DNA of 64,000 nucleotides, taken from NCBI GenBank assembly GCA_003290465.1, contig CP030759.1:1205144-1269143 (forward strand), given 5' to 3'. A program made the translations under genes and the position numbers. The stretch comes from Candidatus Sumerlaea chitinivorans. Its GTDB lineage: Bacteria; Sumerlaeota; Sumerlaeia; Sumerlaeales; Sumerlaeaceae. Below, in pieces: positions 1-47,154 of this stretch (within the stretch, counting starts at the first letter, position 1; each line of letters starts with the position of its first letter). Under the pieces are notes generated by a model. The model was given only the letters and a program-made list of their open reading frames with translations, had not been told where the DNA came from and searched no databases.

Positions 1-533
1 GCTCATCCGCGAGGATGAGGTCTGGATTGTTTATCAGCGCACGTGCCAGAGCAACCCGCTGCTGCTCGCCACCTGACAATTTGGCAGGCCGGTGGTGAAG
101 TCGCTCCCCAAGTCCAAGCGCTGTCAGACGCTCGGTCGCCTCGCGTTCGAGTTCACTCCGGGGGCGCCCCAGAATCAAGCCGGGAATCATGACATTCTCC
201 AGTGCGCTGAACTCTGCCAACAGATGATGAAACTGGAAAATGAACCCCACATTACGGTTTCGAATCTGAGCGAGCTCTGCACTGTTTAAACGGGAGAGCT
301 CTTGACCTCGTAAGAAGATCTGGCCGGCAGTGACGCGGTCCAAGGCGCCTAACAGGTGAAGAAGCGTGCTTTTGCCCACGCCACTTGCTCCAACAATTGA
401 GACTATCTCCCCCTCGCGTACCGTAAGATTGACCCCACGCAAAACATGCAGTTCGCGCGTGGCGTCTAAGTACGATTTGTGAACGTTGCGCGCTTCAAGC
501 ACGATGGAATTCTGGGAGGGGCTCTTACTCATA
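1..533 (-). CDS. lolD: ABC transporter ATP-binding protein, LolD/MacB-type (N-terminal part; gene runs off the window start)
   Basis: Reverse-strand translation from ATG at 531-533 reads MSKSPSQNSIVLEARNVHKSY...GASGVGKSTLLHLLG (Walker A)...LSGGEQQRVALARAL (ABC signature)...LILADE (Walker B). Start overlaps the stop of the adjacent FtsX-type permease gene. Absent from ORF track because no stop lies inside the window. Confidence 0.8.
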
Positions 534-1757
534 GCGCAGCGCCTCAACGGGATCCAGTCGTGCGGCTTGGCGGGCGGGATAGTACGAGGCCGCAAGGCAA
601 ATGGTAAGAGCTGAGAAAACGATGAGGATGTTCCACCATGGATTGATAAGGATCGGAATTCGATCTGACAGATAGGCTTCAGAGAGCAGGTCTATTTTTA
701 CATGGTATTTCAGTAAATAACACGTCCCGAGCCCGAGCACCGCGCCAATTGCCGTTCCCACCATTCCAATGAATGTCCCCTGGAAAAGAAAAATCCGCAG
801 AATGGCTTGCTCAGTCGCCCCCATGGATTTGAGAATTCCGATCTCCCGGGTTTTTTCGATCACCACCATGATGAGAGTCCCGATGATGTTGAAGGCCGCT
901 ACGAGGACGATAAGCAGAAGAATGATAAACATTGCCCATTTTTCGAGTACGAGTGCGTCGAAAAGAACAGGATTTCGCTCTCGCCACGTTGTGACGGTGT
1001 AATCGGGTCCAACCGCGGCCTGCACTTTTTTGCGCGCTTCGTCCACCTTCTCGGGATCATTTACCACTAAATGGATCCCATCGACCTCATTCGGAGGCAC
1101 CATGAATAGCGCTCGAGCTGTCTCCAAGCTTGTATATCCAATCATTTCGTCGGCTTCGGGAAAACCACTTTCGAACGCCCCGCACACAATCGCATTGCGC
1201 GCCAAAGCAGCTCCTCCAGTGGGAGTCCGCACAACTTTTGGAGAGAGCACGGTCACTTTTGTGCCGAGAGGGATGTAGAGCTTTTGAAGAATTTTTTTGC
1301 CCAACACGATTTCGCCGGGACCGGGCAGTTTTTTCCCAACGACTTTGTCCATGAGACGGGTCACATGCTGTTCCGCCTCCAAATCCACCCCTTGAATAAA
1401 AATCGCCGTCTGGCGTGGCTCCTCCCCTTCCCCAGGAACCACTTGGATGAGAGCTTGGCGCATAATGACGGGCCCCGCCGCTTTTACCTCAGGCACCGAG
1501 CGGACGATGGGCAACAGCTTGTCAGGATCCACCGGTGGCGAGTCCGTGGTGGTTCGAACAATTTCAATGTGCGCATAGGCACCGATGATTTTCTGGACAA
1601 GGTTTGAATCGAATCCCTCCATCACCGCAAGGACCACAATCAATGCGTAGACCCCCAGGGCGACACCCGCGATCGAGATGATCGTTATGAGTGAGATCAG
1701 CGCCTTATGTGTCCCTGAGAATAGATAGCGGCGTGCAATAAACGGCTCGAACCGCAA
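525..1757 (-). CDS. lolE: Lipoprotein-release ABC transporter permease, LolC/LolE (FtsX) family
   Basis: 410 aa; N-terminus MRFEPFIARRYLFSGTHKALISLITIISIAGVALGV typical of LolC/E; large extracytoplasmic domain between TM1 and TM2; C-terminal FtsX-type TM bundle. Apparent TTG start. Confidence 0.8.
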   Translation of the reverse strand: MRFEPFIARRYLFSGTHKALISLITIISIAGVALGVYALIVVLAVMEGFDSNLVQKIIGAYAHIEIVRTTTDSPPVDPDKLLPIVRSVPEVKAAGPVIMRQALIQVVPGEGEEPRQTAIFIQGVDLEAEQHVTRLMDKVVGKKLPGPGEIVLGKKILQKLYIPLGTKVTVLSPKVVRTPTGGAALARNAIVCGAFESGFPEADEMIGYTSLETARALFMVPPNEVDGIHLVVNDPEKVDEARKKVQAAVGPDYTVTTWRERNPVLFDALVLEKWAMFIILLLIVLVAAFNIIGTLIMVVIEKTREIGILKSMGATEQAILRIFLFQGTFIGMVGTAIGAVLGLGTCYLLKYHVKIDLLSEAYLSDRIPILINPWWNILIVFSALTICLAASYYPARQAARLDPVEALRYE

Positions 1758-1924
1758 CGATCACTCCTCTACTCAGTCATAGTTGCCCACGTAACTCTGT
1801 GGGATGATTGTCAGTCGACTCGCCGGTGCAAGTACAAACGCCATGCGTTGCGTCTGACAGGTGTCTCAAACAGTGCACTAAGAACCAGTTTCTCATCCAA
1901 GTTTAAACTGCATCAGAAAAGCTG

Positions 1925-1962
1925 TGGGGCTCTCCGACCTTTTGTCGGTCAGGAGAGCCCCA
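1925..1962 (-). terminator. Rho-independent terminator downstream of hppA
   Basis: Inverted repeat ggggctctccgacc / ggtcaggagagcccc forms a ~14-bp GC-rich stem just downstream of the hppA stop (1997); on the minus strand it is followed by a U-rich tract (cuuuucu). Coordinates approximate. Confidence 0.6.
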
Positions 1963-1996
1963 CAAGGATCTCGTTTTTTTGCGCGTTGCGTCACGC

Positions 1997-4180
1997 TTAA
2001 ATGAACAGTGGTGCAAGCACTAAGGTGACGGTGCTTAATAGCTTGATCAGCACGTGCAAGGAGGGGCCAGCCGTATCCTTGAATGGATCTCCAACGGTGT
2101 CGCCGACGACGGCTGCTTTATGGGCATCCGAGCCCTTTCCACCATATTGGCCCGTCTCGATATACTTCTTGGCATTGTCCCACGCACCGCCACCATTGTT
2201 CATGAAGAGTGCCATCAGAATGCCGGCAATCGTGCCGACCATAAGCAAGGCGGCGACAGACTGAGGTGCAACCCCTTCTTTCGTGACGAATTTCAGGCCG
2301 AAACCCAGCGCCGCGGGCACGACCACGGGGAGAATTCCCGGCAAGACCATTTCTTTCAAAGCGGCCTTGGTCACGATATCCACGCAGCGAGCGTAATCGG
2401 GTTTGTCCTTACCCTCCATAATTCCCGGCTTTTCACGGAATTGCCGCCGCACCTCCTCGATGACGGACTGCGCGGCTTTACCCACGGAGCGAATCGCAAG
2501 CGCGGAGAACAAGAAGACAAGCATAGCGCCGATCGATGCCCCAATGAACACCGGCACGTGCCCAAGGTCCACCGTGGTCATAATGGCTTTCCCGGCATGA
2601 CGTAGATACTCATTCACTTCATCGATGTAGGCTTGGAACAGCAGGAACGCGGCTAACGCGGCAGATCCAACCGCATAGCCTTTCGTCAAGGCTTTGGTGG
2701 TATTGCCAACTGCGTCGAGGCGGTCGGTCTTTTCGCGAATGCTTTCGGGCTGCTGGCTCATTTCCACGATTCCGCCCGCGTTGTCCGTGATGGGTCCAAA
2801 GGTGTCCATTGCCAAGATGTAGGCGGCAGTGGACAACATGCCCATGGTCGCAATCGCGGTACCGTACAAACCGGCGGCCGTGGGGCTAATACCCGCTTTG
2901 GTCATTCCACCCCAGCCACCGAGGACATGCAGCATCCCCAATTGGCCAAATTTATAGGCAAGCATCAGGGCCACCGAAATCACAACGATCGGAATGGCCG
3001 TGCACTCCATACCAACCGATAAGCCAGAGATGATGGTGGTGGCAGGGCCAGTACGGCAGGAGTCCGCGATCCATTTCACGGGGCGATACCGATACTCAGT
3101 GTAATACTGCGTAATCCACACGAACGCGTAAGAGCATAGGATACCGACGACTCCGGCGAGGAAGAAGTAAATCTGGCCCTTCAGAAGCAACAGGACAGCA
3201 ATGTAGAACCCGATAATCCCTAAAATCGTTGTGACGAGGTAGCCGCGGTTGAGGGCCGACATGGGATCCTCCCATCCACTCTCCTCGCTGCCTTTGACCT
3301 TTACCGAAAGCACACCGACGATCGAGGCGATGAGTCCCAAAGCACGCGCAAAGAGCGGGAACATGATTGCGCCCAAACCAAACACGGGGCCGTTTTCACC
3401 TGTGATTTTGTAGAGGGCGATACCGAGAATCATGGCCCCAATGTTCTCCGCAGCGGTGGATTCGAAAAGGTCTGCGCCACGGCCCGCACAATCGCCAACA
3501 TTGTCGCCCACGAGGTCAGCGATCACCGCTGGATTTCGAGGATCGTCCTCAGGAATGCCCGCCTCGACTTTGCCAACAAGATCAGCACCAACGTCGGCAG
3601 CCTTCGTGTAGATTCCTCCGCCGAGCTGAGCAAACAGCGCGACGAAGGAGGCGCCAAAGCCGTAACCTACGATTTGCAAAGGTACGATATCGGGGTTCTT
3701 CAATCCGTCAAAAATCCAAAAGAGTAACCCGACACCCAACAGCGACATCGCAACCACCATAATACCCGAAACGGCTCCTCCGCGTAGAGCAACTTGGAGG
3801 GCAGTATTGAGGTTTTTGGTCGCTGCAGATGCAGTACGAATGTTCGAACGAATGGAAATATACATGCCGATGAAACCGGCAAACCCTGAGCAAAATGCAC
3901 CGAACAGGAAAGAAATAAACGTCCGAATGGCCAGCTGGCTGCCCTTCTCCTTGAAGTAGAAGGCAAAGAGGATTGCCGCCAAAACCACAGACAGAATCGC
4001 AATGGTTTTGTACTGGCGCTTTAGGAACGCTTCCGCGCCCTCTTTAATCGCGTTGGAGATCACCTGCATGGCGGGTGTCCCCGTGTCTTTGGCCAATACC
4101 CATTTCGCCATTGCAAAGGCGACGATGAGTCCGGCAACTGAGATCAGCATCGTAACAGCGAAGACAAGTTGCGGCGTCAT
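1997..4180 (-). CDS. hppA: Membrane-bound proton-translocating pyrophosphatase (H+-PPase)
   Basis: ORF 1997..4240; motifs [40 protein letters not shown], many TM helices. Start re-assigned to ATG at 4180 (MTPQLVFAV...); track start is GTG. Confidence 0.93.
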
Positions 4181-4589
4181 AGAACCCTTTCCTAAATAAA
4201 ATTTTGTCGGGAGCCGGAGCCCCCGAGACACTCCTAACACTCACGCGCGCACTTAACGTGTCAAGCGAACTCACGCCCCATTAGGCCACAAAGATGCCAA
4301 GAGGCTTGCAGCAAAGACACGAAGAAAGCACGACGCTACCGAAAGCCAAACAAACAGCTTTTTAGTCTATGTATTCAAAAGATGGTCACAGGATAAGTTA
4401 AATCGTTCCAATTATTTAGTACAAATAATGTACTCTTTCCGCGCAAACATTGACCCTGCGGAACTTGTGGGACGCGAGAGAAGTTCATGCTTGCCGCCAC
4501 AGATCGGTATTATGCGATGGTTTATATGCGCGTCTTAGTTGGCGCCCGGTAAATGATTGAGGGGAGGCAAATGCACGAAGTGAATCAAC

Positions 4590-4635
4590 AAAAAGGCCTT
4601 GTCGGGTTGAGCCCAAAAGGGGGACTCAACCCGAC
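4590..4635 (-). terminator. Rho-independent terminator downstream of the 4670-6064 gene
   Basis: Perfect inverted repeat gtcgggttgag...ctcaacccgac (11-bp stem) downstream of the minus-strand stop at 4670, followed on the minus strand by CCUUUUUGUUG. Coordinates approximate. Confidence 0.65.
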
Positions 4636-4669
4636 AGGCTGAACGGAAATCTGCAAACTTAGCTATGAG

Positions 4670-6064
4670 CTATTGTTTGCTACGGAAAGCGCCGATGAAC
4701 GCATCCAGTTCACTACGGAACTTGGTTAGGTAGGGGGTAAAGTCGGGATCCTGCGGCACAAACATTTCAATCTCTATAAGCTTTGGGGCAATGCTGACAA
4801 TCTTGCCATCTTCGACTTCCACGATCGCGTGACCGATTTGCCGTCCTTCGAAGCCTCCCGTGAGGACCCACGTGTTGCCAACGCGTTGGGCGTTGTTCAT
4901 GTAGTAGTCCTTCGCCTTGCCGGCAGTAAACTCTCCGCACACCACGATGGCAATGCTCTTAGCGGTATCGCCTAACTTTTCAAGCAGCGCGGGGACATCC
5001 TCGCGCGTGTAGTACGCCAAAAGAATGATGAGGTCGCTTTCTTTTTTGGCCTTTGGCAGCGTTTCCTTGAGCGCAGCCACTGGATCGGTGATCTCATAAT
5101 CAGGCTGCGGAGCAGTGGGAATGCGACCGTCCACTGGCTTCGTGACCCCAACAATCGCTACACTCACTTTCTTGCCGTTCATGAGCTTGAGCTTACTTAC
5201 GCGATACGCTGGAAACGCTAACTTCCCGTTTTGGGTGCGGACGTTTGCCGAAACAAATGGCAACGAAAAGCTCGTTTGGAGATCCTGTAGAAAATTGAGC
5301 CCACTGCTGAGGTCGGTAGTACCGACATTTACCGCATCAACTTGCATTTTTGCTAAAGCTTCTGCTATGTAACGAACCCCGATTTTGCTCGGCTCATTTG
5401 CGGGCACCCGCAAATAGCCCCCAGCGTCTACCTTGAGCTGCGGCTGGCCCCCTTCGGCAATAAGTTTGGCGATTTTAGCTTCGCGATCAATGCCACCGAG
5501 GGGATGAGCTGGGCAAGAGCAGGGCTCGAGGCTTGAACGACGATTGCTGGAGTGCAGCAACGAGAAGGCGCGTTCCATAGACTGCGGGGCACTCGTGGGG
5601 CGCAGATGGGCCAGCAAAACCTCCATGCTCACGGTCGTCGGCCGGGCTGCAAATTGGGTGGGTTTGCGTTGAGAGGCCTGCCGTGCCCTCATCTGTGCAA
5701 GCGTCTCTGAAGAAATGCTGGTTTGTCGGGGGCGCGTCGTCAAGCCAGCCCGACGCCGCATTTCCATTATCTCGGTCGTGCTAAAGGTTCGCCGTACCAG
5801 TGGTGGGGTGGACATCCGACGTGCTGGTCGCGCAACCAGTGGACCACTCGTTGCGCGTCCCGCTTTCAAGGGCGCCTCGAGACGCTTTTCTTGCCCCAAC
5901 AAAGGGTTTGGGGTTTCCGAAACAGCTGCCGTGCCAGCTACTTGGGCGAGGGCGCCTCCGACGCAGAAGAGCACGAAAACACCCATGAACCATGCCCCCA
6001 CTCGGCGAGCAGGTTTGTCAGCCAATTTCCAACGTCCCAACATCATTATCCTCCTTGAAAACAC
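4670..6064 (-). CDS. Membrane-anchored hypothetical protein with low-complexity linker and C-terminal degenerate 5'-nucleotidase/metallophosphatase-like domain
   Basis: 464 aa; N-terminal hydrophobic segment AWFMGVFVLFCVGGALAQVAG; Arg/Ser/Thr/Pro-rich linker; C-terminal region (LPFVSANVRTQNGK...KVSVAIVGVT...DLIILLAYYT...IAIVVCGE) follows the UshA/5'-nucleotidase N-domain pattern, but positions normally GNHEFD and GHSH read GTTDLS and VCGE. Start codon uncertain. Confidence 0.5.
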   Translation of the reverse strand: MFSRRIMMLGRWKLADKPARRVGAWFMGVFVLFCVGGALAQVAGTAAVSETPNPLLGQEKRLEAPLKAGRATSGPLVARPARRMSTPPLVRRTFSTTEIMEMRRRAGLTTRPRQTSISSETLAQMRARQASQRKPTQFAARPTTVSMEVLLAHLRPTSAPQSMERAFSLLHSSNRRSSLEPCSCPAHPLGGIDREAKIAKLIAEGGQPQLKVDAGGYLRVPANEPSKIGVRYIAEALAKMQVDAVNVGTTDLSSGLNFLQDLQTSFSLPFVSANVRTQNGKLAFPAYRVSKLKLMNGKKVSVAIVGVTKPVDGRIPTAPQPDYEITDPVAALKETLPKAKKESDLIILLAYYTREDVPALLEKLGDTAKSIAIVVCGEFTAGKAKDYYMNNAQRVGNTWVLTGGFEGRQIGHAIVEVEDGKIVSIAPKLIEIEMFVPQDPDFTPYLTKFRSELDAFIGAFRSKQ

Positions 6065-6161
6065 TCAGCTCTGGGAATGGTGATTATGCACAGCCTACCA
6101 GCTATTCCACCTGCGTCTACCCGTGGGCAGTTTTCTGTCTAAGCGACGGGGCCTCCAAACG

Positions 6162-7757
6162 TCACTGGGCATTTTTCCCCAACGACTCTCGGATGCTATT
6201 GGCCCAACGCCGCACCTCGTCCGCTCGGCTCCCCCCAACTTGTAGGTACCGCTCGTAGTATTTCAACGCTTGTTGCTTATCCTGGAGATGATCATCGTAG
6301 ATGATGCCGAGGTTCAGTAGGGCTTTTTCATAGTTTGGGTCGAGCTCGAGAACTTTTTTGAACTGCTCAGCGGCTTTCGCATATTCGCCCTTTTCCATGT
6401 AAACAACCCCCAAGTTGTTGCGAGCGAATTTGTGTTTAGGATCGAGCTCCAAAGCTCTGCGAAATGCACCAATCGCGAGGTCGAGGCGGCGCAATTCTCG
6501 ATACACATTGCCACGCCGGTAGTAAATTTGCGGCTCATTAGGATTTTGAGCGATGGCACGATCAAATTGCGCCTCAGCCGCGTCCAGCTCACCTGCACGA
6601 GCTAAGGCCTCTGCAAGTAAGGCTCGCGTCTCCACATCATTTGGATTCAGTCGCAAAGCCTGCTCATATTCGTTTGCAGCCTCGACCCAACGCTCCGACT
6701 TGCGATAAGAATCGGCCTTCTCCCGGTGAAAAGCGAATGTTCCAAGAGCCACCTTCTCGCGATTACCGTAACCTATGGATCCTCGCTCCGCCCGACTTTC
6801 TTCGCTAAAAGCGACCCGGTTCACTTCTTCTGCCGTCGGCCGCCCGCCTTCAGTGGGCCCAGGACCTTTCCCACCTTCAGAAACGCGTTCTGGGGCATGA
6901 TCCCGTATCTCAATATCCTGACCTTCTTCTTGATTCCCCATCGCTGGCTTCCGCGCCTCGAATCCCCTCTTAGCTCCTGATGGCTTTGAGCCCGCACCCG
7001 TCTGCGCCTGAGCGCTCTTCCCGCGCTTATCCTGCGGTTGTTCGGCGTTCACGATTTCACGAGCAGGAACCTCATGAACGATTTCGACCGGCTGCTGAGG
7101 GATGACCTGGTCGCGCACTCCTCCGACAGGGATCGCATTCTGGGGGCTACGGGGAATAGGTGGGGAAAAAGCTTCACTGCTGACTTTTGGCGGCTTTGGC
7201 AAAAGGAGTCCGACCCGACCAATGAGAGGCCGAGGTTCTGGGGTCGCATCGTCAGGTGCGACTTCGGGCTTGCGAAGGGATTGGATGGTCTCGACTTCCG
7301 ACTGAAGCGCGTCGACGTTGGTGCGGGCAGACTCCTCGCCTTCCTCACTCGAGGCCCCATGCGCTGAACGTCGGCGACTCGCCTGACTGCGGACACCAAG
7401 TTTGGCCAACTCCGCCTTTGCGAGTTCATACTCAGGATTGAGCTCGAGGGCTTTCTCAAAAGCTTCCCGAGCTTCGTCCTTACGCCCTAACCGGGCATAG
7501 ATCCGTCCCAACTCGCAATAGGCTGCCGGCGAGGGTGCGAGGCTCACGGATTTTTGAACCGCCTCGGCAGCTTGTTCGAGCTGCCCGTTGCTTGCGAGAG
7601 CCTTGCCATGAGCAAGGTACTCGATCGCCTGACGACGCCCTTCAAGCGGTCGCGCAGCCGGTCCTGCATTCACGACTCCGGCGAATAGTGCCAATCCAGC
7701 CACGAAAAGTGTGATTCTGCTCGCCATTTCCTGTGTCCACATTCGTTTTTGTATCAT
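6162..7757 (-). CDS. Tetratricopeptide-repeat (TPR) protein, secreted or periplasmic
   Basis: 531 aa; N-terminal signal-like segment ITLFVAGLALFAGVVNAG; TPR-like repeats at both ends (AYCELGRIYARLGRKDEAREAFEKALELNPEY; YYRRGNVYRELRRLDLAIGAFRRALELDPKH; GVVYMEKGEYAKAAEQFKKVLELDPNY); central Pro/Gly/Glu-rich low-complexity region. Confidence 0.75.
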   Translation of the reverse strand: MIQKRMWTQEMASRITLFVAGLALFAGVVNAGPAARPLEGRRQAIEYLAHGKALASNGQLEQAAEAVQKSVSLAPSPAAYCELGRIYARLGRKDEAREAFEKALELNPEYELAKAELAKLGVRSQASRRRSAHGASSEEGEESARTNVDALQSEVETIQSLRKPEVAPDDATPEPRPLIGRVGLLLPKPPKVSSEAFSPPIPRSPQNAIPVGGVRDQVIPQQPVEIVHEVPAREIVNAEQPQDKRGKSAQAQTGAGSKPSGAKRGFEARKPAMGNQEEGQDIEIRDHAPERVSEGGKGPGPTEGGRPTAEEVNRVAFSEESRAERGSIGYGNREKVALGTFAFHREKADSYRKSERWVEAANEYEQALRLNPNDVETRALLAEALARAGELDAAEAQFDRAIAQNPNEPQIYYRRGNVYRELRRLDLAIGAFRRALELDPKHKFARNNLGVVYMEKGEYAKAAEQFKKVLELDPNYEKALLNLGIIYDDHLQDKQQALKYYERYLQVGGSRADEVRRWANSIRESLGKNAQ

Positions 7758-7817
7758 TCTTCCCTCGAGGAAGGGGAATTTTAGCTGTTCTGGGGCAGCT
7801 TAAGCTCGGCAGCCGGT

Positions 7818-8501
7818 TTAGTACGAGTACGCTTCATCCTCAAACACAAGCTTGCCATTCGCGAAACTAAAAACCATTTCCTTGGCTGACTTGAAAGGTG
7901 AACGATAAAGCCAAGTTTCGCGCCGAATGTTCGGCGCAATCGTTGTCGCAATTACTTCGCTTGGGAGGCCATAAACCAAGATGGTTCGCTCCTGATCTGT
8001 GAGCGGACCTTCGTAAACCATGGTGCGGTCCACAAATTGAAATAGGTGATTCAGCCGATGATAAACCCATTCCACGACCAGTTCGCCGCGAGTGGATTTA
8101 TAGGGTCCTCGGAGGTAGTCCGGCTGTCCCCACTCGCGAAGGATTGCTTTCTGCTCTTCGGATAGGACTTCGTCAGGTTGGCGTTTGAGGCGCTTCCCTC
8201 GCATTACATGTTCCACCCCGTGAACGTTCTCATAGTAAGGATACTTACGAAAATGAAGAACGTTATGGGTGTTTTGGGCTGGATAGCGCTTCGTGAGGAT
8301 GGGGCGGCCATCTTCGGTAAAGTCGTACTTGGGGCGTGGCGGACAGACCTGATTCGGCTGATAGCGACTTGGCTGCTCTCCGGATTTCCCCGTGTTAAAA
8401 AACGGGAACGAGAACAGCGGCTTTTGGGCATAAGTTGGCGAAGCCATCAAGATCGGAATAGCAAGGAAAAGAAGACTCCTACTCAGCCACTTGTTGCGCA
8501 T
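7818..8501 (-). CDS. Hypothetical secreted protein
   Basis: 227 aa; signal peptide MRNKWLSRSLLFLAIPILMASPTYAQ; no recognisable catalytic motif. Confidence 0.5.
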   Translation of the reverse strand: MRNKWLSRSLLFLAIPILMASPTYAQKPLFSFPFFNTGKSGEQPSRYQPNQVCPPRPKYDFTEDGRPILTKRYPAQNTHNVLHFRKYPYYENVHGVEHVMRGKRLKRQPDEVLSEEQKAILREWGQPDYLRGPYKSTRGELVVEWVYHRLNHLFQFVDRTMVYEGPLTDQERTILVYGLPSEVIATTIAPNIRRETWLYRSPFKSAKEMVFSFANGKLVFEDEAYSY

Positions 8502-8800
8502 CCGTTAGCACCTCAATTCTTGACCACTTCAGTTATGGCACCCAGCCACGTAAGCCAAACTGCTGCGCCGTGTCCACCGAGCGCCGTATTTTCTGTATTA
8601 TTCACACTGATCTGATTGCTGTAAGCAAGCAAGATCTGCGCCCAAACATTCTGCACTTGTTGGCTGCGCAGTGTGCGAATTTGCTGTACAAAGGGATTGA
8701 AGAGGGGGCGTAGTAAACGCGATTCTGCGTTTGCGGTTGGGATTTTTCCCCCAAAATCATGAAGTTAGTAATCCGTCGAAGGGAAATCGGTGCTCAAATG

Positions 8801-9235
8801 AAAAAACTGGTTTTGACGATTATTGGATCATTCGTCGTGACGGTCGCTTTCGCAGGGGGAGAACTCCCGCGTGGTGCGGCCGCACCTGAGCCGGTCCGTG
8901 TGTTCAAGCCGCGAGACGAACAGAAGCGGCTTGGCCCGCCTGCGGGTGATCAAACCGTTTGTCGTGAGGCACCGTTGCCTGCTCCGTACCGGCCGATTGG
9001 GTGGGGTAAGAAACTCCATGAGAAGTATGGCCCGACGTACTATTACCCGTCTGAGCGCGCCTATGAGGGACTGAACCCTACGTATTATCCGTTTTTCCAT
9101 CCGCGCTTGTGGCCGAACTACAAAGCCCCAGCGCAATATCCCCGCAACCATTTCTGCGGCAGTAGCCGAAGCGGCTGGTATTGGGATGAGTACGACGACT
9201 GGGTGCGGGGCGGCCGTTACGAAGAGCGCCAGTAA
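8801..9235 (+). CDS. Hypothetical secreted Tyr/Pro-rich protein
   Basis: ORF 8759..9235; start re-assigned to MKKLVLTIIGSFVVTVAFAGG (signal peptide). The overlapping minus-strand ORF 8828..9310 is Arg-rich and less protein-like. Confidence 0.45.
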   Translation, partial: KKLVLTIIGSFVVTVAFAGGELPRGAAAPEPVRVFKPRDEQKRLGPPAGDQTVCREAPLPAPYRPIGWGKKLHEKYGPTYYYPSERAYEGLNPTYYPFFHPRLWPNYKAPAQYPRNHFCGSSRSGWYWDEYDDWVRGGRYEERQ

Positions 9236-9553
9236 GACATAGGCAAAAATTGCACAGTTCGGGGCGAAAACGTTCGCGTAGGGAACATTTTTAGGACCAA
9301 ATTTGTCCAATATCTGGACTCACTCAGTGAATATCTCTTCCGGCCGAGCCGATGCGGGACAGCAGCATAAGTTTAGGAACTTCAACAAGATTTGTGCGGA
9401 TGGATGGTTTGAAGAAGGATAGAATCGACCACTCCGTTCTGCCACCTGAGCAAACGGAACAAACTTTGCTCCACTTGCAACGAACGATTGAACAGTCTTT
9501 GAGCTTGAATTTGGTACAGTGAATCGGAAGCATTTCTTCAGAAAGTGGGAAAA

Positions 9554-10369
9554 ATGGTGAGTACAATATCCACAAGGCGAAGAACCCATTCCAAAGCGCA
9601 GAAGCGTTTACGGGGTAAGACCTTGTCACGCGTAGCCGAACCCCTCGATCTGCACGATGAGGTGGTGGAGAGCGAGCCAGAGCAGCGTGCTTTGCTTCCA
9701 CGGGAGGAACCAGAAACAGTGCTGGAGAACGACTTCGAAAACCAAGAGAATCTCCTTATTGAAGAGCCTACCCCGAGCGAGGAAGAACAGCGCTTCCTCA
9801 CGGCGGAAGAAGAAAGGGAGATTATACGCCGAGTCCAGCAAGGCGACCGTGCGGCTTTCGAACAGCTGGTCGCTGCCTATGAACAGAAAGCCTATTACAC
9901 GGCACTGCAGTTTGTGAACAATCCAGAGGATGCGAAGGATTTGTCCCAAGACTGCTTCGTCAAGGCGTACAAAGCAATCAAGACGTTCGATATTAACTCT
10001 CCATTCTTCCCGTGGTTTTACAAAATCATCAAGAATCACTGCCTGAACTTCCTAAAGAAAAACCAACGGGTGCGTAGCGACTATATGTCGCAAATGGAGG
10101 AGGACAACCATCAGCAATTTGAAGACTCGCGCCAGCCAACGCCGAGTGACTGGTTCGTCAACGATGACGTTCGACACAAGCTGTGGCAGGCCATCGAGCG
10201 GCTCAAACCCGATTTCCGCGAAATCATCGTGATGAAGCACTTCCACAACCTCTCCTATAAGGAGATTGCGGAAGCACTCCAGATTCCAATCGGAACGGTG
10301 ATGAGTCGTCTGTTCAATGCGCGTCAGGAACTGCGGGAGAAATACGAAGAAGTTTTGAAAGGCAAATAG
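9554..10369 (+). CDS. RNA polymerase sigma factor, ECF (sigma-70 family) with acidic N-terminal extension
   Basis: Region 2 (FEQLVAAYEQKAYYTALQFVNNPEDAKDLSQDCFVKAYKAI...PFFPWFYKIIKNHCLNFLKK) and region 4 HTH (IIVMKHFHNLSYKEIAEALQIPIGTVMSRLFNARQELR). About 90 aa of acidic low-complexity sequence precede region 2. Track start is GTG at 9545; first ATG at 9554. Confidence 0.8.
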   Translation: MVSTISTRRRTHSKAQKRLRGKTLSRVAEPLDLHDEVVESEPEQRALLPREEPETVLENDFENQENLLIEEPTPSEEEQRFLTAEEEREIIRRVQQGDRAAFEQLVAAYEQKAYYTALQFVNNPEDAKDLSQDCFVKAYKAIKTFDINSPFFPWFYKIIKNHCLNFLKKNQRVRSDYMSQMEEDNHQQFEDSRQPTPSDWFVNDDVRHKLWQAIERLKPDFREIIVMKHFHNLSYKEIAEALQIPIGTVMSRLFNARQELREKYEEVLKGK

Positions 10370-10398
10370 GCGCCCATTTCAAGCAAGCGAAAGACTTA

Positions 10399-10438
10399 GC
10401 CCCGTCGCCGGGAAAAGCGACGGGGCTCTTTCTTATTT
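10399..10438 (+). terminator. Rho-independent terminator after the sigma factor gene
   Basis: gccccgtcgc-cgggaaaa-gcgacggggc stem-loop followed by tctttcttattt, about 30 bp downstream of the stop at 10369. Confidence 0.75.
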
Positions 10439-10815
10439 GCAGAGCAAAAACAAATGCCGCCCCCCTCCCACCGCACCTGAGTTCACTGCAATAGATCTCA
10501 GTAGTCGGAGGTTTGGAAAAAGATCGCCCACGAAGATCTCATGGCGGAGGCAGCACGGAAATCCCTGACTGGGGTTGCGGCTCCACCGAAAAAGATTGGT
10601 AGAACAAAGTTCCTCCGTTACACTCGAGAATGGAGCCTTGATTTCGACAGACTGCGCAAATCTCCTTAACTCCATTGGTAAGGCTTACAGATCAACCTGC
10701 GCAATCACCCCTTATAACCGTTGAACAGCCTCTCGTCTCGTGGGACTCCCCTTCGGACGAAGGAGACACCAGCTTTACTCTATAGCAGACGCGCAGTTGT
10801 TCGCCCACGCGTTCA

Positions 10816-11955
10816 TCACGGCAGAGCATCGAGCAGTTGGTCGAGTTCCGACTCATCATTGTAAAAATGCGGGGAGACCCGCAAGAAGCCCCGCCGAGCA
10901 GCAATGAGAATCTTGCGCTCCTGAAGTTGCTGAACGATTTCGGAAGGGGAGATCCCTTCCTTGATGAAACTCACAATTCCCGCGCGGCTGGCCACGTCTG
11001 TCGGTGTGATGATTGAGTATCCCTTTCTTCGAACCCCTTCGATTACATACTCCGTGAGCTCCTGAACTCTGGCACCGATTCGCTCGAGTCCCACGTCAAG
11101 AAGAAGGCGGAGAGAACTTCCTAAAGCATGAATGGTCATCAAGTTATGGGACCCTTCCTCAAAACGCCGCGCATCTGGCTTATACGGCTGATCGTAGTTG
11201 TCGTAATCCTGCGGATTGGCAAGACCACACCAACCACACATGTTCAGATTCAGCTCCGGGATCCGCGAGCGCCGCACGTAAAGAATACCACACCCCTCAG
11301 GCGCCAAGAGCCACTTGTGGCCATCTGCTGAGAGAAAATCGACAGGAATTTCCTGAACGTCCAAAGGTAGAACGCCCAAGCCTTGGATAGCGTCCAAGAA
11401 GAACATCACGCCGCGCTCGGTACAAATCTGGGCCAAAGCTGCGATGTCGTTGCGCACCCCCGTGCCATATTCCACCCATGAGACCGCGAGGAGACGGGTT
11501 CGCTCATCTATTGCAGCAATAACGTCATCCAATCGAAAACGGTAATCCGGCTGTTCAGCAACCAGTCGCAACTCAACGCCCCGCTCAGCCAGATTTCGCC
11601 AAGGGTGAACATTTGCGGGGAACTCATGGGCAAACCCAACAATGTTGTCACCGGGGCGCCAGTTAATCGAGTTCGCAATAATTAGGATCCCGTGCGTGGT
11701 GTTGTGGGTGAAACAAATATCGCGAGGTTCAGCATTGATAAGGCGAGCTGCAGCCTCCCGCGCCTGTGCCATTCCATGCAGCCATGCGGCATAGTTCGCC
11801 GGACCTTCCTCAGCAGCATCTCTGGCGAATTCTGTGATCGCCATCTGCGTGGAAACAGGGATAGGCGCCACACCTGCATGGTTGAGAAAAACGTACTGCT
11901 CCTTGATTGGAAACTCGCTTCTCAGATCGAACGGAAACTCAGTATTCTTGCTCAT
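10816..11955 (-). CDS. Class V aminotransferase / cysteine desulfurase-family PLP enzyme
   Basis: 379 aa; FLNHAGVAP N-terminus, SADGHKWLLAPEGCGILYV (PLP-lysine motif), overall length and pattern of aminotransferase class V. Confidence 0.75.
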   Translation of the reverse strand: MSKNTEFPFDLRSEFPIKEQYVFLNHAGVAPIPVSTQMAITEFARDAAEEGPANYAAWLHGMAQAREAAARLINAEPRDICFTHNTTHGILIIANSINWRPGDNIVGFAHEFPANVHPWRNLAERGVELRLVAEQPDYRFRLDDVIAAIDERTRLLAVSWVEYGTGVRNDIAALAQICTERGVMFFLDAIQGLGVLPLDVQEIPVDFLSADGHKWLLAPEGCGILYVRRSRIPELNLNMCGWCGLANPQDYDNYDQPYKPDARRFEEGSHNLMTIHALGSSLRLLLDVGLERIGARVQELTEYVIEGVRRKGYSIITPTDVASRAGIVSFIKEGISPSEIVQQLQERKILIAARRGFLRVSPHFYNDESELDQLLDALP

Positions 11956-12128
11956 ACAATCGTAAGAATCTAAGAGCTTGCGTGAATTGCAAGCGGGGAA
12001 CGCGCTCCCATAGAGCCCTTCGCCTCAGAAACACTTCGCAGAAGTTGCATTTTGATGATTGACATCGACCGATGGAGCCACTTGGAGAAATTTTAGTTTC
12101 AAAACAATGGGCTTAGACAAAATCTGCG

Positions 12129-13178
12129 ATGAAAGAATTCCCTGACGAGCTGTCGACCGAACACGAATTAGAAGAGCTGCTGAGTGAGCCAACCCCCGAG
12201 ACAGTTGAAATGTTTCGTCGCCTTTCAGGCGATCTGATGATTCTTGGTGCCTCAGGGAAAATGGGTCCTTCGCTTGCACGTATGGCGGCGAAAGCTGCCC
12301 GCCGTGCAGGTAATCCCATGCGAGTCATTGCAGTGGCCCGTTTCTCTGATCCTCAGGCCCGGACGCTCCTCGAGAACGATGGTATAGAAACCATCGCTGT
12401 TGATCTACTGGATTATGAACAGGTCCTTCGCTTGCCGCGCGCGAAGTATGTCCTGTATTTAGTTGGGCGCAAATTTGGTAGGGCGGGCACGGAGACGTTG
12501 ACGTGGGCAACGAATGCAGTTGTCCCTGCCTACTTGCTCGAAGCCTGCCGCGGCTCTTATGTCGTTGCGTTTTCGACCGGGTGTGTTTACCCCTTAGTAC
12601 CCGTGCAGAGCCAAGGCTGTTCCGAGCAGGATCCGGCCGGCCCGGTTGGCGAATATGCGTGGTCGTGTTTAGCTCGGGAGCGTGTGTTCGAGTTTCTAAG
12701 TACGCGTTACGACACGCCTGTTCTCCTCTATCGCCTCAACTATGCCAATGCCGTACGTTATGGCGTGCTCACGGATCTGGCCACCACGATAGCGCGTGGC
12801 GAGCCGGTGGACCTGTCCGTAGTAGCTGTCAATCTGATCTGGCAGGGCGACGCGAACAATTTTGCCCTGCGGTGCCTCGAGTTCGCAAAAGTTCCACCCG
12901 AGGTATTGAACATCACCGGACCTGAGAAATGGTGGATTCGCGACCTCGCTATGGAAATCGGGCGTCTGATGAATAAGCCAGTGACTTTTTGCGGCTCCCC
13001 CACTGGTGTCGCGTATCTCAGTGATGCTTCGCGTGCCTGTGAACTGTTTGGTGCGCCTCGCGTCCCGATCCAAGTGGTTACTCGGTGGACCGCTCGTTGG
13101 GTAGCATCCGGCAAACCCATCTTAGGAAAACCAACCCACTTCCAAGTTACCGATGGTCAATTTCTCGATCCTGCATAA
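12129..13178 (+). CDS. NAD-dependent epimerase/dehydratase-family protein (Rossmann fold)
   Basis: 349 aa; glycine-rich dinucleotide-binding motif ILGASGKMG near N-terminus; extended-SDR-like length. Substrate not assignable. Confidence 0.6.
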   Translation: MKEFPDELSTEHELEELLSEPTPETVEMFRRLSGDLMILGASGKMGPSLARMAAKAARRAGNPMRVIAVARFSDPQARTLLENDGIETIAVDLLDYEQVLRLPRAKYVLYLVGRKFGRAGTETLTWATNAVVPAYLLEACRGSYVVAFSTGCVYPLVPVQSQGCSEQDPAGPVGEYAWSCLARERVFEFLSTRYDTPVLLYRLNYANAVRYGVLTDLATTIARGEPVDLSVVAVNLIWQGDANNFALRCLEFAKVPPEVLNITGPEKWWIRDLAMEIGRLMNKPVTFCGSPTGVAYLSDASRACELFGAPRVPIQVVTRWTARWVASGKPILGKPTHFQVTDGQFLDPA

Positions 13179-13202
13179 ATTGTGAGGAGGAAATCTGCCC
13201 TT

Positions 13203-14276
13203 ATGTCGCTTCCCATGCCTGATTCGGAAGTTCTTGCCACGCTGCGCCGGGGGGTCGTGATTCCGGCAAGTCCGCTCGCTCTGGACGCGGAGAAAAGGCT
13301 CGATACGCGTCGTCAAACGGCCCTCATGCGCTATTACTGCGCAGCAGGCGCTGGCGGGGTTGCTGTAGCAGTGCACACCACGCAGTTTGAGATTCGAGAC
13401 GCCGCAACTCGCATGTTCGAACAGGTGCTGGAAACCTGCTCGCGTGCGATCGATGAAGCCGGACGTGCCCAGCGCCGACGAATTGTAAAAATCGCAGGCG
13501 TGTGTGGGCGTACAACGCAAGCATTAGACGAAGCCCGCAAAGCTGCAGATTTCGGCTACGACGCCGCACTACTCAGTCTTGCTGCTCTTCAGAATTCATC
13601 CGAGGAAGAGCTAATTCGGCATTGCCAAGCAGTGAGTCAGATCATTCCGCTCGTCGGTTTCTATCTTCAACCCGCCGTAGGGGGCAGAATCTTGCCCTTC
13701 TCATTCTGGCGTCGGTTCGTAGAAATAGAAAACGTCGTCGCTATCAAGATTGCCCCATTCAATCGCTATCAGACGCTTGACGTCGTGCGAGCAGTTGCAC
13801 TGGCCGGTCGGGATGAGGAAATTGCCCTCTACACGGGCAACGACGATAACATCATTGCGGATTTACTCACCCCATTTACGCTGCAAACCCAAGCGGGACC
13901 CGTGCGCCTACGCATTCGCGGTGGACTCTTGGGACAGTGGAGTGTTTGGACGCGCACCGCGGTCCGGCTTCTCCATGAAATTCACGAGGCGTTGGCAACG
14001 TCAGACCACATCCCAATCAGCTTACTTGAAAAGAATGCCCAGCTAACCGATGCAAACGCGGCCATCTTTGACGCTGCCCACGGTTTTGCCGGGTGCATCG
14101 CAGGCATCCACGAAGTCCTGCGACGGCAAGGGCTGCTCGAATTCACACATGCGTTGGATGAGAAGGTTCAACTCTCGCCGGGGCAAGCGGAAGAAATCAC
14201 TCGGGTGACGCGCGACTACCCGTGGCTCCCAGATGATGACTTCGTGAGTGCACACCTTGCCGAATGGCTCGACTGA
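13203..14276 (+). CDS. Dihydrodipicolinate synthase-family (class I aldolase, TIM-barrel) protein
   Basis: ORF 13182..14276; start re-assigned to ATG at 13203, preceded by AGGAGG. DapA-family pattern with candidate Schiff-base lysine in VVAIKIAPFN. 4-bp spacing from upstream epimerase gene suggests an operon. Confidence 0.6.
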   Translation: MSLPMPDSEVLATLRRGVVIPASPLALDAEKRLDTRRQTALMRYYCAAGAGGVAVAVHTTQFEIRDAATRMFEQVLETCSRAIDEAGRAQRRRIVKIAGVCGRTTQALDEARKAADFGYDAALLSLAALQNSSEEELIRHCQAVSQIIPLVGFYLQPAVGGRILPFSFWRRFVEIENVVAIKIAPFNRYQTLDVVRAVALAGRDEEIALYTGNDDNIIADLLTPFTLQTQAGPVRLRIRGGLLGQWSVWTRTAVRLLHEIHEALATSDHIPISLLEKNAQLTDANAAIFDAAHGFAGCIAGIHEVLRRQGLLEFTHALDEKVQLSPGQAEEITRVTRDYPWLPDDDFVSAHLAEWLD

Positions 14277-33352: not shown

Positions 33353-33442
33353 TGGCGGTGGGAGTAGGATTCGAACCTACGAGGGGCTTGCACCCCTGGC
33401 GGTTTTCAAGACCGCTGCCTTAAACCACTCGGCCATCCCACC
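33353..33442 (-). tRNA. tRNA-Ser (anticodon TGA)
   Basis: Reverse strand reads GGTGGGA-TG-GCCGAGTGGTTTAAGGC-A-GCGGT-CTTGAAA-ACCGC-(long variable arm CAGGGGTGCAAGCCCCTC)-GTAGG-TTCGAAT-CCTAC-TCCCACC-G-CCA. 7-bp acceptor stem, type-II variable arm, anticodon UGA, encoded CCA. Coordinates checked against the overlapping ORF's codon frame. Confidence 0.9.
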
Positions 33443-40869: not shown

Positions 40870-41496
40870 CTACGTGTCATTCGGCCCAGCCTCAACTCCC
40901 GCGGAGGTATCGGGGAAAAGCTCTTCTTGTACGGCGTCTGGAATTGTGTGGCAATAACGACATCGCGCCTCGTATGCATCACCTGCGCCAATCAGGACAA
41001 GGTCTTTGTTTTGTACTTTTCGTTGGGTGCGGTGGGCAGGAGCACCACACACCACGCAAATAGCGAGCATTTTTTGAACGTACTCCGCAACCGCCATGAG
41101 TTCAGGCACAGGATGCCACGGACGGCCGCGGTAATCTTGATCGAGCCCAGCACAAATCACTCGGATCCCTCGGTTTGCCAACTCCTCGCACACGGCAACT
41201 ATTTCGGAACCGAGAAATTGAACCTCGTCAATTCCAACAACTTCAGTATCCGGCTCAAGATAACGGTAGATATCTGCTGCTGCCCCAATCGTAACGCACG
41301 GAATCTGCTGTTGTGAGTGGGAGGAAATGCAACTTTCGCTATAGCGGGTGTCGATCTGAGGCTTGAAAGCAATAACCTTTTGGCGGGCAATCTGAGCGCG
41401 GCGCAGACGCCGGATAAGCTCTTCGCTCTTACCGCTAAACATACTTCCACAAATGACTTCGATCCAACCACGGTTTGGATATTTCAGAACATGCAT
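40870..41496 (-). CDS. tdk: Thymidine kinase
   Basis: 208 aa; P-loop GSMFSGKSEELIRR, VIGIDEVQF, C-terminal zinc ribbon CVVCGAPAHRTQR...ARCRYCH. Confidence 0.9.
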   Translation of the reverse strand: MHVLKYPNRGWIEVICGSMFSGKSEELIRRLRRAQIARQKVIAFKPQIDTRYSESCISSHSQQQIPCVTIGAAADIYRYLEPDTEVVGIDEVQFLGSEIVAVCEELANRGIRVICAGLDQDYRGRPWHPVPELMAVAEYVQKMLAICVVCGAPAHRTQRKVQNKDLVLIGAGDAYEARCRYCHTIPDAVQEELFPDTSAGVEAGPNDT

Positions 41497-47070: not shown

Positions 47071-47154
47071 GCGGGCGTGGCGGAATGGCAGACGCGCCGG
47101 ACTTAGGATCCGGTTCCGCAAGGAGTGGAGGTTCAAGTCCTCTCGCCCGCACCA
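47071..47154 (+). tRNA. tRNA-Leu (anticodon TAG)
   Basis: GCGGGCG-TG-GCGGAATGGCAGACGC-G-CCGGA-CTTAGGA-TCCGG-(variable arm TTCCGCAAGGAGT)-GGAGG-TTCAAGT-CCTCT-CGCCCGC-A-CCA. 7-bp acceptor stem, anticodon UAG, long variable arm, encoded CCA. Coordinates checked against the overlapping ORF's codon frame. Confidence 0.88.

Follow-up and report, generated by a model that had tools for sequence, protein, structure and literature searches.

A UshA-like Cys-x-Cys protein of Candidatus Sumerlaeota with an eroded dimetal site: a candidate periplasmic redox protein

We analyzed a stretch of 64,000 nucleotides from Candidatus Sumerlaea chitinivorans (CP030759.1, positions 1,205,144–1,269,143; assembly GCA_003290465.1), in the following termed the window, whose own positions are used as coordinates throughout. 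The open reading frame (ORF) of interest occupies 4670..6064 on the minus strand and comprises 464 aa counted from a mechanically assigned 5' end, the GTG at 6064; all residue numbers, such as C182 or R219, refer to this 464-aa frame. The encoded protein combines a 5'-nucleotidase-type domain, devoid of all ligands of the ancestral dimetal site, with a conserved Cys-x-Cys loop whose second cysteine is in register with the selenocysteine (Sec) of a related selenoprotein. Based on these comparisons, we give an even chance to the reading that this protein serves in the periplasm as a redox enzyme or carrier based on Cys and built on a metal-free metallophosphatase scaffold. The gene and the parts of its product that carry this reading are:

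4670..6046, minus strand: coding sequence of the UshA-like Cys-x-Cys protein, 458 aa counted from ATG 6046
4673..5629, minus strand: 5'-nucleotidase-type metallophosphatase N-domain with an eroded dimetal site, 319 aa, with no nucleoside-binding C-domain after it
5513..5521, minus strand: Cys-Ser-Cys motif (C182, C184), the second Cys in register with the Sec of the PCGU motif

Fold and homology of the C-terminal domain

The C-terminal domain is homologous to the N-domain of the 5'-nucleotidase-type enzymes UshA, CD73, YfkN and SoxB. The best NCBIfam match was NF041198 (UshA_like_PCGU) with an E-value of 5.9e-36 and 124.1 bits, aligning residues 153–416 to positions 10–266 of the 519-position profile and remaining below its curated cut-off of 275 bits. 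The C-terminal half of this profile (~344–519) represents a tetrahaem module, which matches the cytochrome part of the relatives P0020, P0026 and P0060, and it is because the window protein lacks this module that its match is confined to positions 10–266 with 124 bits. Weaker NCBIfam matches were obtained for SoxB (TIGR04486; E 3.5e-8, 32 bits versus the 550 required), UshA (E 7e-5) as well as CpdB and YfkN-type enzymes, and a phmmer search against the sequences of the Protein Data Bank (PDB) returned YfkN (E 1e-6) and snake-venom 5'-nucleotidase (E 1e-3). A profile derived from 16 family members matched CpdB (E 2e-16) and UshA (E 2e-12) more strongly, and also YfkN, CD73 and SoxB. A preliminary description of this DNA had suggested a 5'-nucleotidase-like metallophosphatase domain, quoting the motifs LPFVSANV, KVSVAIVGVT, DLIILLAYYT, IAIVVCGE and GTTDLS, all of which are present in the ORF, and the matches to profiles, PDB sequences and folds bear this assignment out.

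Likewise, structure prediction, proposed there as a check, yielded a metallophosphatase fold: the AlphaFold2 (AF2) model of the domain reached a predicted local distance difference test score (pLDDT) of 90 and a predicted template modelling score (pTM) of 0.91. Using this model, Foldseek retrieved the N-domains of UshA (1ush), 1hp1, CD73, YfkN and SoxB with E-values of 1e-17 to 2e-19 and query-based TM-scores (TMq) of 0.68–0.77. The profile search proposed alongside it gave no such signal, as a Pfam scan of the window protein returned no match even at E ≤ 10, including PF00149 and PF02872. The alignments to the full-length enzymes span only their N-domains, and the window protein stops after this domain. 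By its sequence, the window protein thus lies outside the catalytic 5'-nucleotidase family, sharing the fold and lacking both the metal ligands and the C-domain.

Loss of the dimetal site

We next mapped the metal ligands and the catalytic dyad of E. coli UshA onto the window protein, checking the register with the relative P0067, which has a fully canonical domain and whose segment LHTGDLHGHLDP aligns to motif I. The equivalences obtained from the alignments are:

UshA D41, motif I (D-x-H): window N174
UshA H43, motif I (D-x-H): window R176
UshA D84, motif II, bridging Asp: window G216
UshA N116, motif III (GNHEFD): window T249
UshA H117, motif III, His of the catalytic dyad: window T250
UshA D120, motif III, Asp of the catalytic dyad: window S253
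UshA H217, motif IV: window Y351
UshA H252, motif V (G-H-x-H/Q): window E378
UshA Q254, motif V (G-H-x-H/Q): window T380

None of the seven metal ligands is kept in these residue-level alignments, and the catalytic His-Asp dyad is replaced as well. The UshA alignment alone would place D84 on Y217 rather than on G216, neither of which is able to ligate a metal. The remnants of the five motifs are nevertheless recognizable along the domain, together with a further loop carrying clade-invariant residues:

5495..5560, minus strand: motif I remnant and putative redox loop, LLHSSNRRSSLEPCSCPAHPLG; N174 and R176 stand in for the D-x-H ligands
5408..5431, minus strand: motif II remnant VDAGGYLR, canonically D-x-G-D; G216 stands for the bridging Asp, and R219 is clade-invariant
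5300..5329, minus strand: motif III remnant NVGTTDLSSG, canonically GNHEFD; T249, T250 and S253, with D251 invariant
5000..5023, minus strand: motif IV remnant LLAYYTRE; Y351 takes the place of the ligand His, and R354 is clade-invariant
4925..4948, minus strand: motif V remnant IVVCGEFT, canonically G-H-x-H/Q; E378 and T380
4829..4858, minus strand: GGFEGRQIGH loop; E406-G407-R408 are clade-invariant, the last position being R or K superfamily-wide

The degeneracy of the metal ligands put forward in the preliminary description is thus confirmed residue by residue. Its statement that GHSH reads VCGE was right as to the loss of the ligands and out of register by one to two positions, as the counterpart of G-H-x-H is G377-E378-F379-T380 (GEFT). 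The interval it had assigned to the protein, 4670–5495, covers the domain in part, starting at residue 190, and so omits the motif I remnant and the Cys-x-Cys motif at 5513–5521.

A Cys-x-Cys loop in register with selenocysteine

The two cysteines C182 and C184 are part of a conserved E-P-C-S-C loop that sits after motif I, within the segment LLHSSNRRSSLEPCSCPAHPLG. To estimate its conservation we used 181 aligned relative domains drawn from the homologue and domain-profile search matches, in which Cys occupied the first position in 155 and the second in 152 cases, with about 24 of the remainder being gaps. Cys/Sec pairs, in which related proteins carry cysteine or selenocysteine at the same position, mark catalytic redox residues.

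The register with Sec was followed in one relative, P0021, a truncated gene call of 269 aa. In-frame translation upstream of this call at its locus, L007, reads AIHTHGDLRGNIGPCG followed by a stop and PLNPMGGFARR, the stop being an in-frame TGA at 7986; a stable hairpin comes after this codon, and further upstream the frame encodes a signal peptide. Aligning the window segment EPCSCPAHPLGG (PCSCPAHPLGG) against GPCG[TGA]PLNPMGG of this locus gave an exact register, with C184 at the Sec position. Several other representatives begin at profile positions 40–43, just past the Sec codon, and are probably cut off in the same way as P0021. The UshA-like family is indeed listed as a CxU selenoprotein (PMC2398784, PMC9312934, PMC13188914), NF041198 being the COG0737 'UshA-like' CxU selenoprotein of Zhang and Gladyshev 2008 (PMC2398784).

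At the locus itself (L007:7764-8810; contig_9, ENA ERZ25067069), the P0021 call constitutes the 3' part of a selenoprotein gene, the preceding part running through HTHGDLRGNIGPCG to the TGA at 7986. The 5' part of this selenoprotein gene overlaps the called start of a divergent Maf gene, and one of the two starts is probably mis-called.

Conservation within the Sumerlaeota clade

Close homologues of the window protein number only about 19, the named ones originating from metagenome-assembled genomes of Candidatus Sumerlaeaceae. When one genome was scanned for each GTDB species, the clade turned up solely in four genomes of Candidatus Sumerlaeota/Sumerlaeaceae; the phylogenetic distribution that the preliminary description had called for is hence that of a clade confined to the Sumerlaeota, with degenerate sites occurring also in the wider superfamily. 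Three of these four genomes contain two copies, an orthologue with 41–51% identity and a paralogue with 36–38% identity, which in two genomes lie about 46 kb apart on one contig (L013 and L012, on the same contigs as L008 and L009). The paralogue, found also at L003/L004:8001-9062, shows the motif YNGYRRSSLEPCGCVSHKLGG and a much shorter N-terminal linker; it lies elsewhere in the genome, where it adjoins a GalT-like gene and a gene for a 460-aa protein.

At an identity of 34–50%, the residues R175, R176, C182, C184, H187, D193, E195, R219, N246, D251, R354, E406 and R408 are invariant in both paralogous clades. According to the strand positions in the AF2 model, most of them are located on the loops after the β-strands bearing motifs I–V, and in metallophosphatases the loops after these strands converge on the active site. 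As the old metal loops hold most of the invariant residues across divergent paralogues, the former active site is under selection. Read from these alignments, the former catalytic pocket is conserved but chemically changed, being Arg-rich and next in sequence to the Cys pair.

Superfamily size and architecture of relatives

Searching 1.84 billion representative proteins with the domain profile yielded 13,310 matches at E ≤ 1e-3, the number falling to 5,496 at E ≤ 1e-10 and to 298 at E ≤ 1e-30. NF041198 was matched by all 99 relatives scanned, half of which (50/99) also contained Pfam Cytochrome_C554, with DsbA/thioredoxin families in 4/99. CXXCH motifs were present in 74 of the 167 collected relatives, nearly always exactly four of them; the window protein has none. 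Further fusions comprise an N-terminal ResA-like thiol-disulfide oxidoreductase domain in P0124 and an OS_HP2 (seleno)protein domain in P0161. The nearest relatives from outside the Sumerlaeota, at about 30–33% identity, include tetrahaem fusions such as P0026 with the same R/CxC/R/EGR residues.

Among the full-length domains, 76 have none of the seven ligands and both Cys, others keep 1–4 ligands, and the sole domain with all seven ligands is without the Cys pair. Three relatives of about 1,200 aa (P0041, P0045 and P0053) contain two UshA-like domains per chain in addition to four CXXCH motifs; one of their domains has Cys-x-Cys without ligands, the other keeps the GD and GH motifs.

N-terminal segment, start codon and local signals

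Ahead of the domain, the window protein contains two further segments, and the gene is flanked by two local signals:

5945..6046, minus strand: probable Sec-pathway signal peptide MMLGRWKLADKPARRVGAWFMGVFVLFCVGGALA, inferred, with an A-x-A cleavage motif ahead of QVAG
5630..5944, minus strand: Arg/Thr/Ala/Pro-rich low-complexity region, 105 aa, pI 12.0, 15% R, 13% T, predicted to be mostly disordered
6050..6056, minus strand: Shine-Dalgarno-like AAGGAGG, read from the sequence, upstream of ATG 6046 and ATG 6043 by 3 and 6 nt, respectively
4600..4636, minus strand: intrinsic-terminator-like hairpin lying 34 nt past the stop codon, with a 15-bp stem and a T run after it

The true start is probably either ATG 6046 or ATG 6043, both being equally possible, with a resulting product of about 457–458 aa; the homologue P0001, sharing 93% identity with the window protein, begins at the second Met. 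Counted from ATG 6046, the first 34 residues, MMLGRWKLADKPARRVGAWFMGVFVLFCVGGALA, exhibit a basic start and a hydrophobic core of 15 residues, after which A-L-A|Q occurs, and the homologues have the same basic/hydrophobic layout with FA|Q or SA|Q at the equivalent place. This layout makes a cleavable Sec signal peptide more likely than the transmembrane anchor that the preliminary description had assumed. Because the layout is kept in the homologues we predict export of the window protein, in line with the envelope location proposed there.

The description of the N-terminal half as Arg/Ser/Thr/Pro-rich and of low complexity agrees with its pI of 12 and its low pLDDT, which in the full-length AF2 model falls below 50 at residues 36–95, 107–115 and 133–140, comprising most of residues 1–145. 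The length of the Arg/Thr-rich linker differs among the homologues, and it is shorter or absent in the paralogue clade. Within the linker (5630–5944, minus strand) we observed loosely repeated 'TT-x-PL-x-RR'-like units, e.g. GPLVARPARR and TPPLVRRTFSTT, which recur in the orthologues in variable number.

Gene neighbourhood

The genes surrounding the UshA-like gene in the window are:

7818..8501, minus strand: 227-aa secreted protein with a signal-peptide-like N-terminus and no Pfam match
6162..7757, minus strand: tetratricopeptide repeat (TPR) protein, 531 aa, with a signal-peptide-like N-terminus
1997..4240, minus strand: H+-translocating pyrophosphatase (PF03030, E 3.6e-268), directly downstream
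525..1757: MacB/FtsX (ABC)

The order of the 227-aa protein, the TPR protein, the UshA-like gene, the terminator, the H+-pyrophosphatase and MacB/FtsX is kept in other Sumerlaeota genomes; the order of the 227-aa protein and the TPR protein is conserved in L001 and the adjacency of the H+-pyrophosphatase in L001 and L002. Being close together and on the same strand, the genes for the 227-aa protein, the TPR protein and the UshA-like protein may form an envelope operon. The H+-pyrophosphatase is a curious neighbour for a former phosphoesterase, its adjacency probably reflecting plain synteny. We set aside a functional link to it, as the region is collinear over about 17 kb anyway and the UshA-like gene has its own terminator. 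The window further encodes two ordinary tRNAs unrelated to the UshA-like gene, tRNA-Ser(TGA) at 33353-33442 (minus strand) and tRNA-Leu(TAG) at 47071-47154 (plus strand).

Discussion

Taken together, the data are consistent with a UshA-like (seleno)protein superfamily member of the stand-alone Cys form that is predicted to be exported and is probably periplasmic. It has kept the alpha/beta sandwich of the 5'-nucleotidase N-domain and lost the dimetal centre completely. The old metal loops now present the invariant R175, R176, R219, D251, R354, E406 and R408, and C182/C184 would act as a redox-active dithiol/disulfide centre, the counterpart of a thiol/selenol centre in the Sec-containing relatives. 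The substrate would be a small, probably anionic, sulfur or selenium compound or the like, or a thiol, held in the Arg-rich former metal pocket. It is this abundance of Arg from which we infer an anionic substrate, such as an oxyanion of sulfur, selenium or arsenic, a polysulfide or a thiosulfonate, or alternatively a thiol. Electrons would be exchanged with a partner; in the relatives this role would fall to the tetrahaem cytochrome c or thioredoxin-fold domain fused to them, and in the case of the window protein the partner would have to come in trans. The Arg/Thr-rich disordered segment probably tethers or positions the protein in the envelope. A dead enzyme seems at odds with the Cys/Sec equivalence, the near-universal Cys-x-Cys, the electron-transfer fusions and the conserved, remodelled pocket.

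More tentatively, and with clearly less confidence than we place in a redox role as such, the superfamily may represent a new class of metal-free periplasmic oxidoreductases, in which the binuclear site of a metallophosphatase has turned into a Cys/Sec-plus-Arg site for the reduction or oxidation of an oxyanion of the sulfur/selenium/arsenic type or of a thiol. In this class the enzyme would usually be wired to a tetrahaem cytochrome, and the Sumerlaeota forms, as pared-down versions, would dock to their partner in trans via the Arg/Thr tail.

Several observations weigh against a redox role. The window protein has neither a haem nor a thioredoxin domain, and a comparison of nine neighbouring ORFs (525-14276) with Pfam revealed no cytochrome, thioredoxin or other redox gene. 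A cytochrome partner encoded within the window was considered and rejected, since the only two CXXCH frames belong to thymidine kinase (40870..41496) and to a spurious frame opposite a dihydroxy-acid-dehydratase-like gene, a label read from its translation. In favour of the redox reading, c-type cytochrome systems able to serve as partners in trans are encoded elsewhere in Sumerlaeota genomes (PMC8092238). The Cys loop is among the less confidently modelled parts of the AF2 structure (pLDDT ~63–67), and the placement of the Cys pair near the Arg-rich pocket follows from the analogy with metallophosphatase topology, which makes this geometry a presumed one. The list of the top 150 relatives is skewed towards sequences resembling the degenerate query profile. 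The conserved gene order is weak evidence of a functional link because the collinearity extends over about 17 kb, and it says nothing on redox. A literature search found selenoproteome catalogues that list the family and no functional study or biochemical data on it. Finally, an exported Cys-x-Cys could instead be a structural disulfide or a metal site.

The first of these two options corresponds to a true pseudoenzyme, a dead scaffold whose only role in the envelope would be to bind a ligand or another protein, with the Cys-x-Cys as its structural disulfide, which we consider unlikely. It would account for the loss of all seven metal ligands and of the His-Asp dyad, for the lack of a redox partner domain in the protein and of a redox partner among the neighbouring ORFs scanned, for the long disordered tether, and for a gene that adjoins, and is probably co-transcribed with, that of a TPR protein, whose fold typically serves protein-protein interaction. 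However, Sec does not normally substitute for a structural disulfide, yet it occupies the aligned position in relatives, and a dead scaffold would explain neither why charged residues of the former catalytic loops are invariant between divergent paralogues nor why half of the scanned relatives carry a fused tetrahaem cytochrome. A pseudoenzyme is expected to have lost its ligands, as observed here, and to offer no alternative conserved reactive site, where we find the invariant Cys-x-Cys and the Arg/Asp/Glu residues. Of the pseudoenzyme proposed in the preliminary description, the domain, the loss of the site and the envelope location therefore hold; the membrane anchor is less likely than a cleaved signal peptide, and a non-catalytic nature is not supported, given that the old active-site loops are the most conserved, that C184 aligns with Sec and that relatives carry redox-domain fusions. 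Nucleotide binding is likewise unsupported, as the C-terminal nucleoside-binding domain is absent. The second option, a new thiophilic metal site in which D251 or E378 might join C182, C184 and H187 (C-x-C-x-x-H), appears somewhat less likely still. Such a site might hold Cu, Zn, Fe, Ni or a cluster and would turn the protein into a periplasmic metal-binding protein, a chaperone or a differently metallated enzyme. The invariance of C182, C184 and H187 in both Sumerlaeota clades would fit, as would the ancestrally metal-binding scaffold and the 1–4 old ligands kept by several relatives, suggestive of gradual remodelling. Against it, the superfamily has no conserved residue at the position of H187 (H 47, N 30, K 26, R 13), the neighbouring invariant residues are mostly cation-repelling Arg, and Sec at the second Cys together with the cytochrome and thioredoxin fusions suits redox chemistry better.

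Five invariant Arg on former phosphate-binding loops, sequence-adjacent to the Cys pair, would also suit a metal-independent hydrolase with a nucleophilic Cys in an Arg pocket, which would attack phosphate esters, sulfate esters or thiosulfonates much as protein-tyrosine phosphatases, rhodaneses or ArsC do with their substrates. The distant homology to SoxB, which cleaves a sulfur oxyanion from cysteine, points in the same direction, towards a Cys-based analogue of SoxB or 5'-nucleotidase. We regard this as improbable, since the electron-transfer fusions (tetrahaem, DsbA/ResA) would be needless for a hydrolase, and we found no report of such an activity for the family. A periplasmic 5'-nucleotidase or 2',3'-cyclic phosphodiesterase of the ordinary kind, as suggested by the shared fold and by the JGI names of the homologues P0004, P0016 and P0023, has next to no likelihood: all seven ligands and the His-Asp dyad are gone, neither a C-terminal substrate domain nor a Pfam Metallophos match is present, and the ligand map effectively refutes the classical nucleotidase.

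Returning to the Cys-based redox protein, its closest described counterpart is the NF041198 family. The window protein shares with this family the P-C-x-C/U loop at the same position, the eroded metal site and the uncharacterised function, and is predicted to be exported like its members. It differs from it in scoring below the cut-off, in lacking the tetrahaem half, in having Cys instead of Sec, in having lost all ligands where some members keep 1–4, and in its lineage-specific Arg/Thr-rich disordered N-terminal extension. With E. coli UshA and human CD73 it has in common the fold of the N-domain, with a Foldseek E-value of about 1e-19 and a TMq of 0.72–0.77, the order and spacing of motifs I–V, the SAN motif and, as predicted, the periplasmic or extracellular location, whereas the seven ligands, the His-Asp dyad, the C-domain and the Pfam match are missing and a Cys-x-Cys has been gained. 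It is the C-terminal domain (PF02872) that binds the nucleoside in UshA and CD73. SoxB, a periplasmic member of the same superfamily whose target is a cysteine-bound sulfur oxyanion, gave weak profile and fold matches; in contrast to the window protein, this dimanganese hydrolase has its ligands intact and possesses a C-domain. A mechanistic parallel is offered by Erv2 (CGC) and Mia40 (CPC), where a Cys pair one residue apart, located on a flexible loop in an oxidising compartment, forms a redox-active shuttle disulfide. The likeness of the window protein to them would be an analogy of the CxC mechanism, the folds being unrelated.

What is known is thus a catalogued and uncharacterised NF041198 family; what our analysis adds, judged from sequence, is a haem-less, Sec-less and ligand-free form with a disordered extension that is restricted to the Sumerlaeota. 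Taken alone, the window gene is one Cys-form member of this family, which corrects a misannotation and refines existing knowledge without revealing a mechanism. The superfamily has been included in selenoproteome tables since 2008, and some automatic annotation still assigns its members as nucleotidase or phosphodiesterase, which the ligand map contradicts. As a whole, the family offers promising ground for the discovery of a new redox enzyme. The Sumerlaeota protein, being small, haem-free and Sec-free, should express easily and would provide a tractable entry for biochemistry and structure. If the Cys/Sec loop is catalytic, the superfamily would represent a metalloenzyme fold re-used for thiol/selenol redox chemistry coupled to multihaem cytochromes, which would bear on periplasmic transformations of sulfur, selenium and metalloids.

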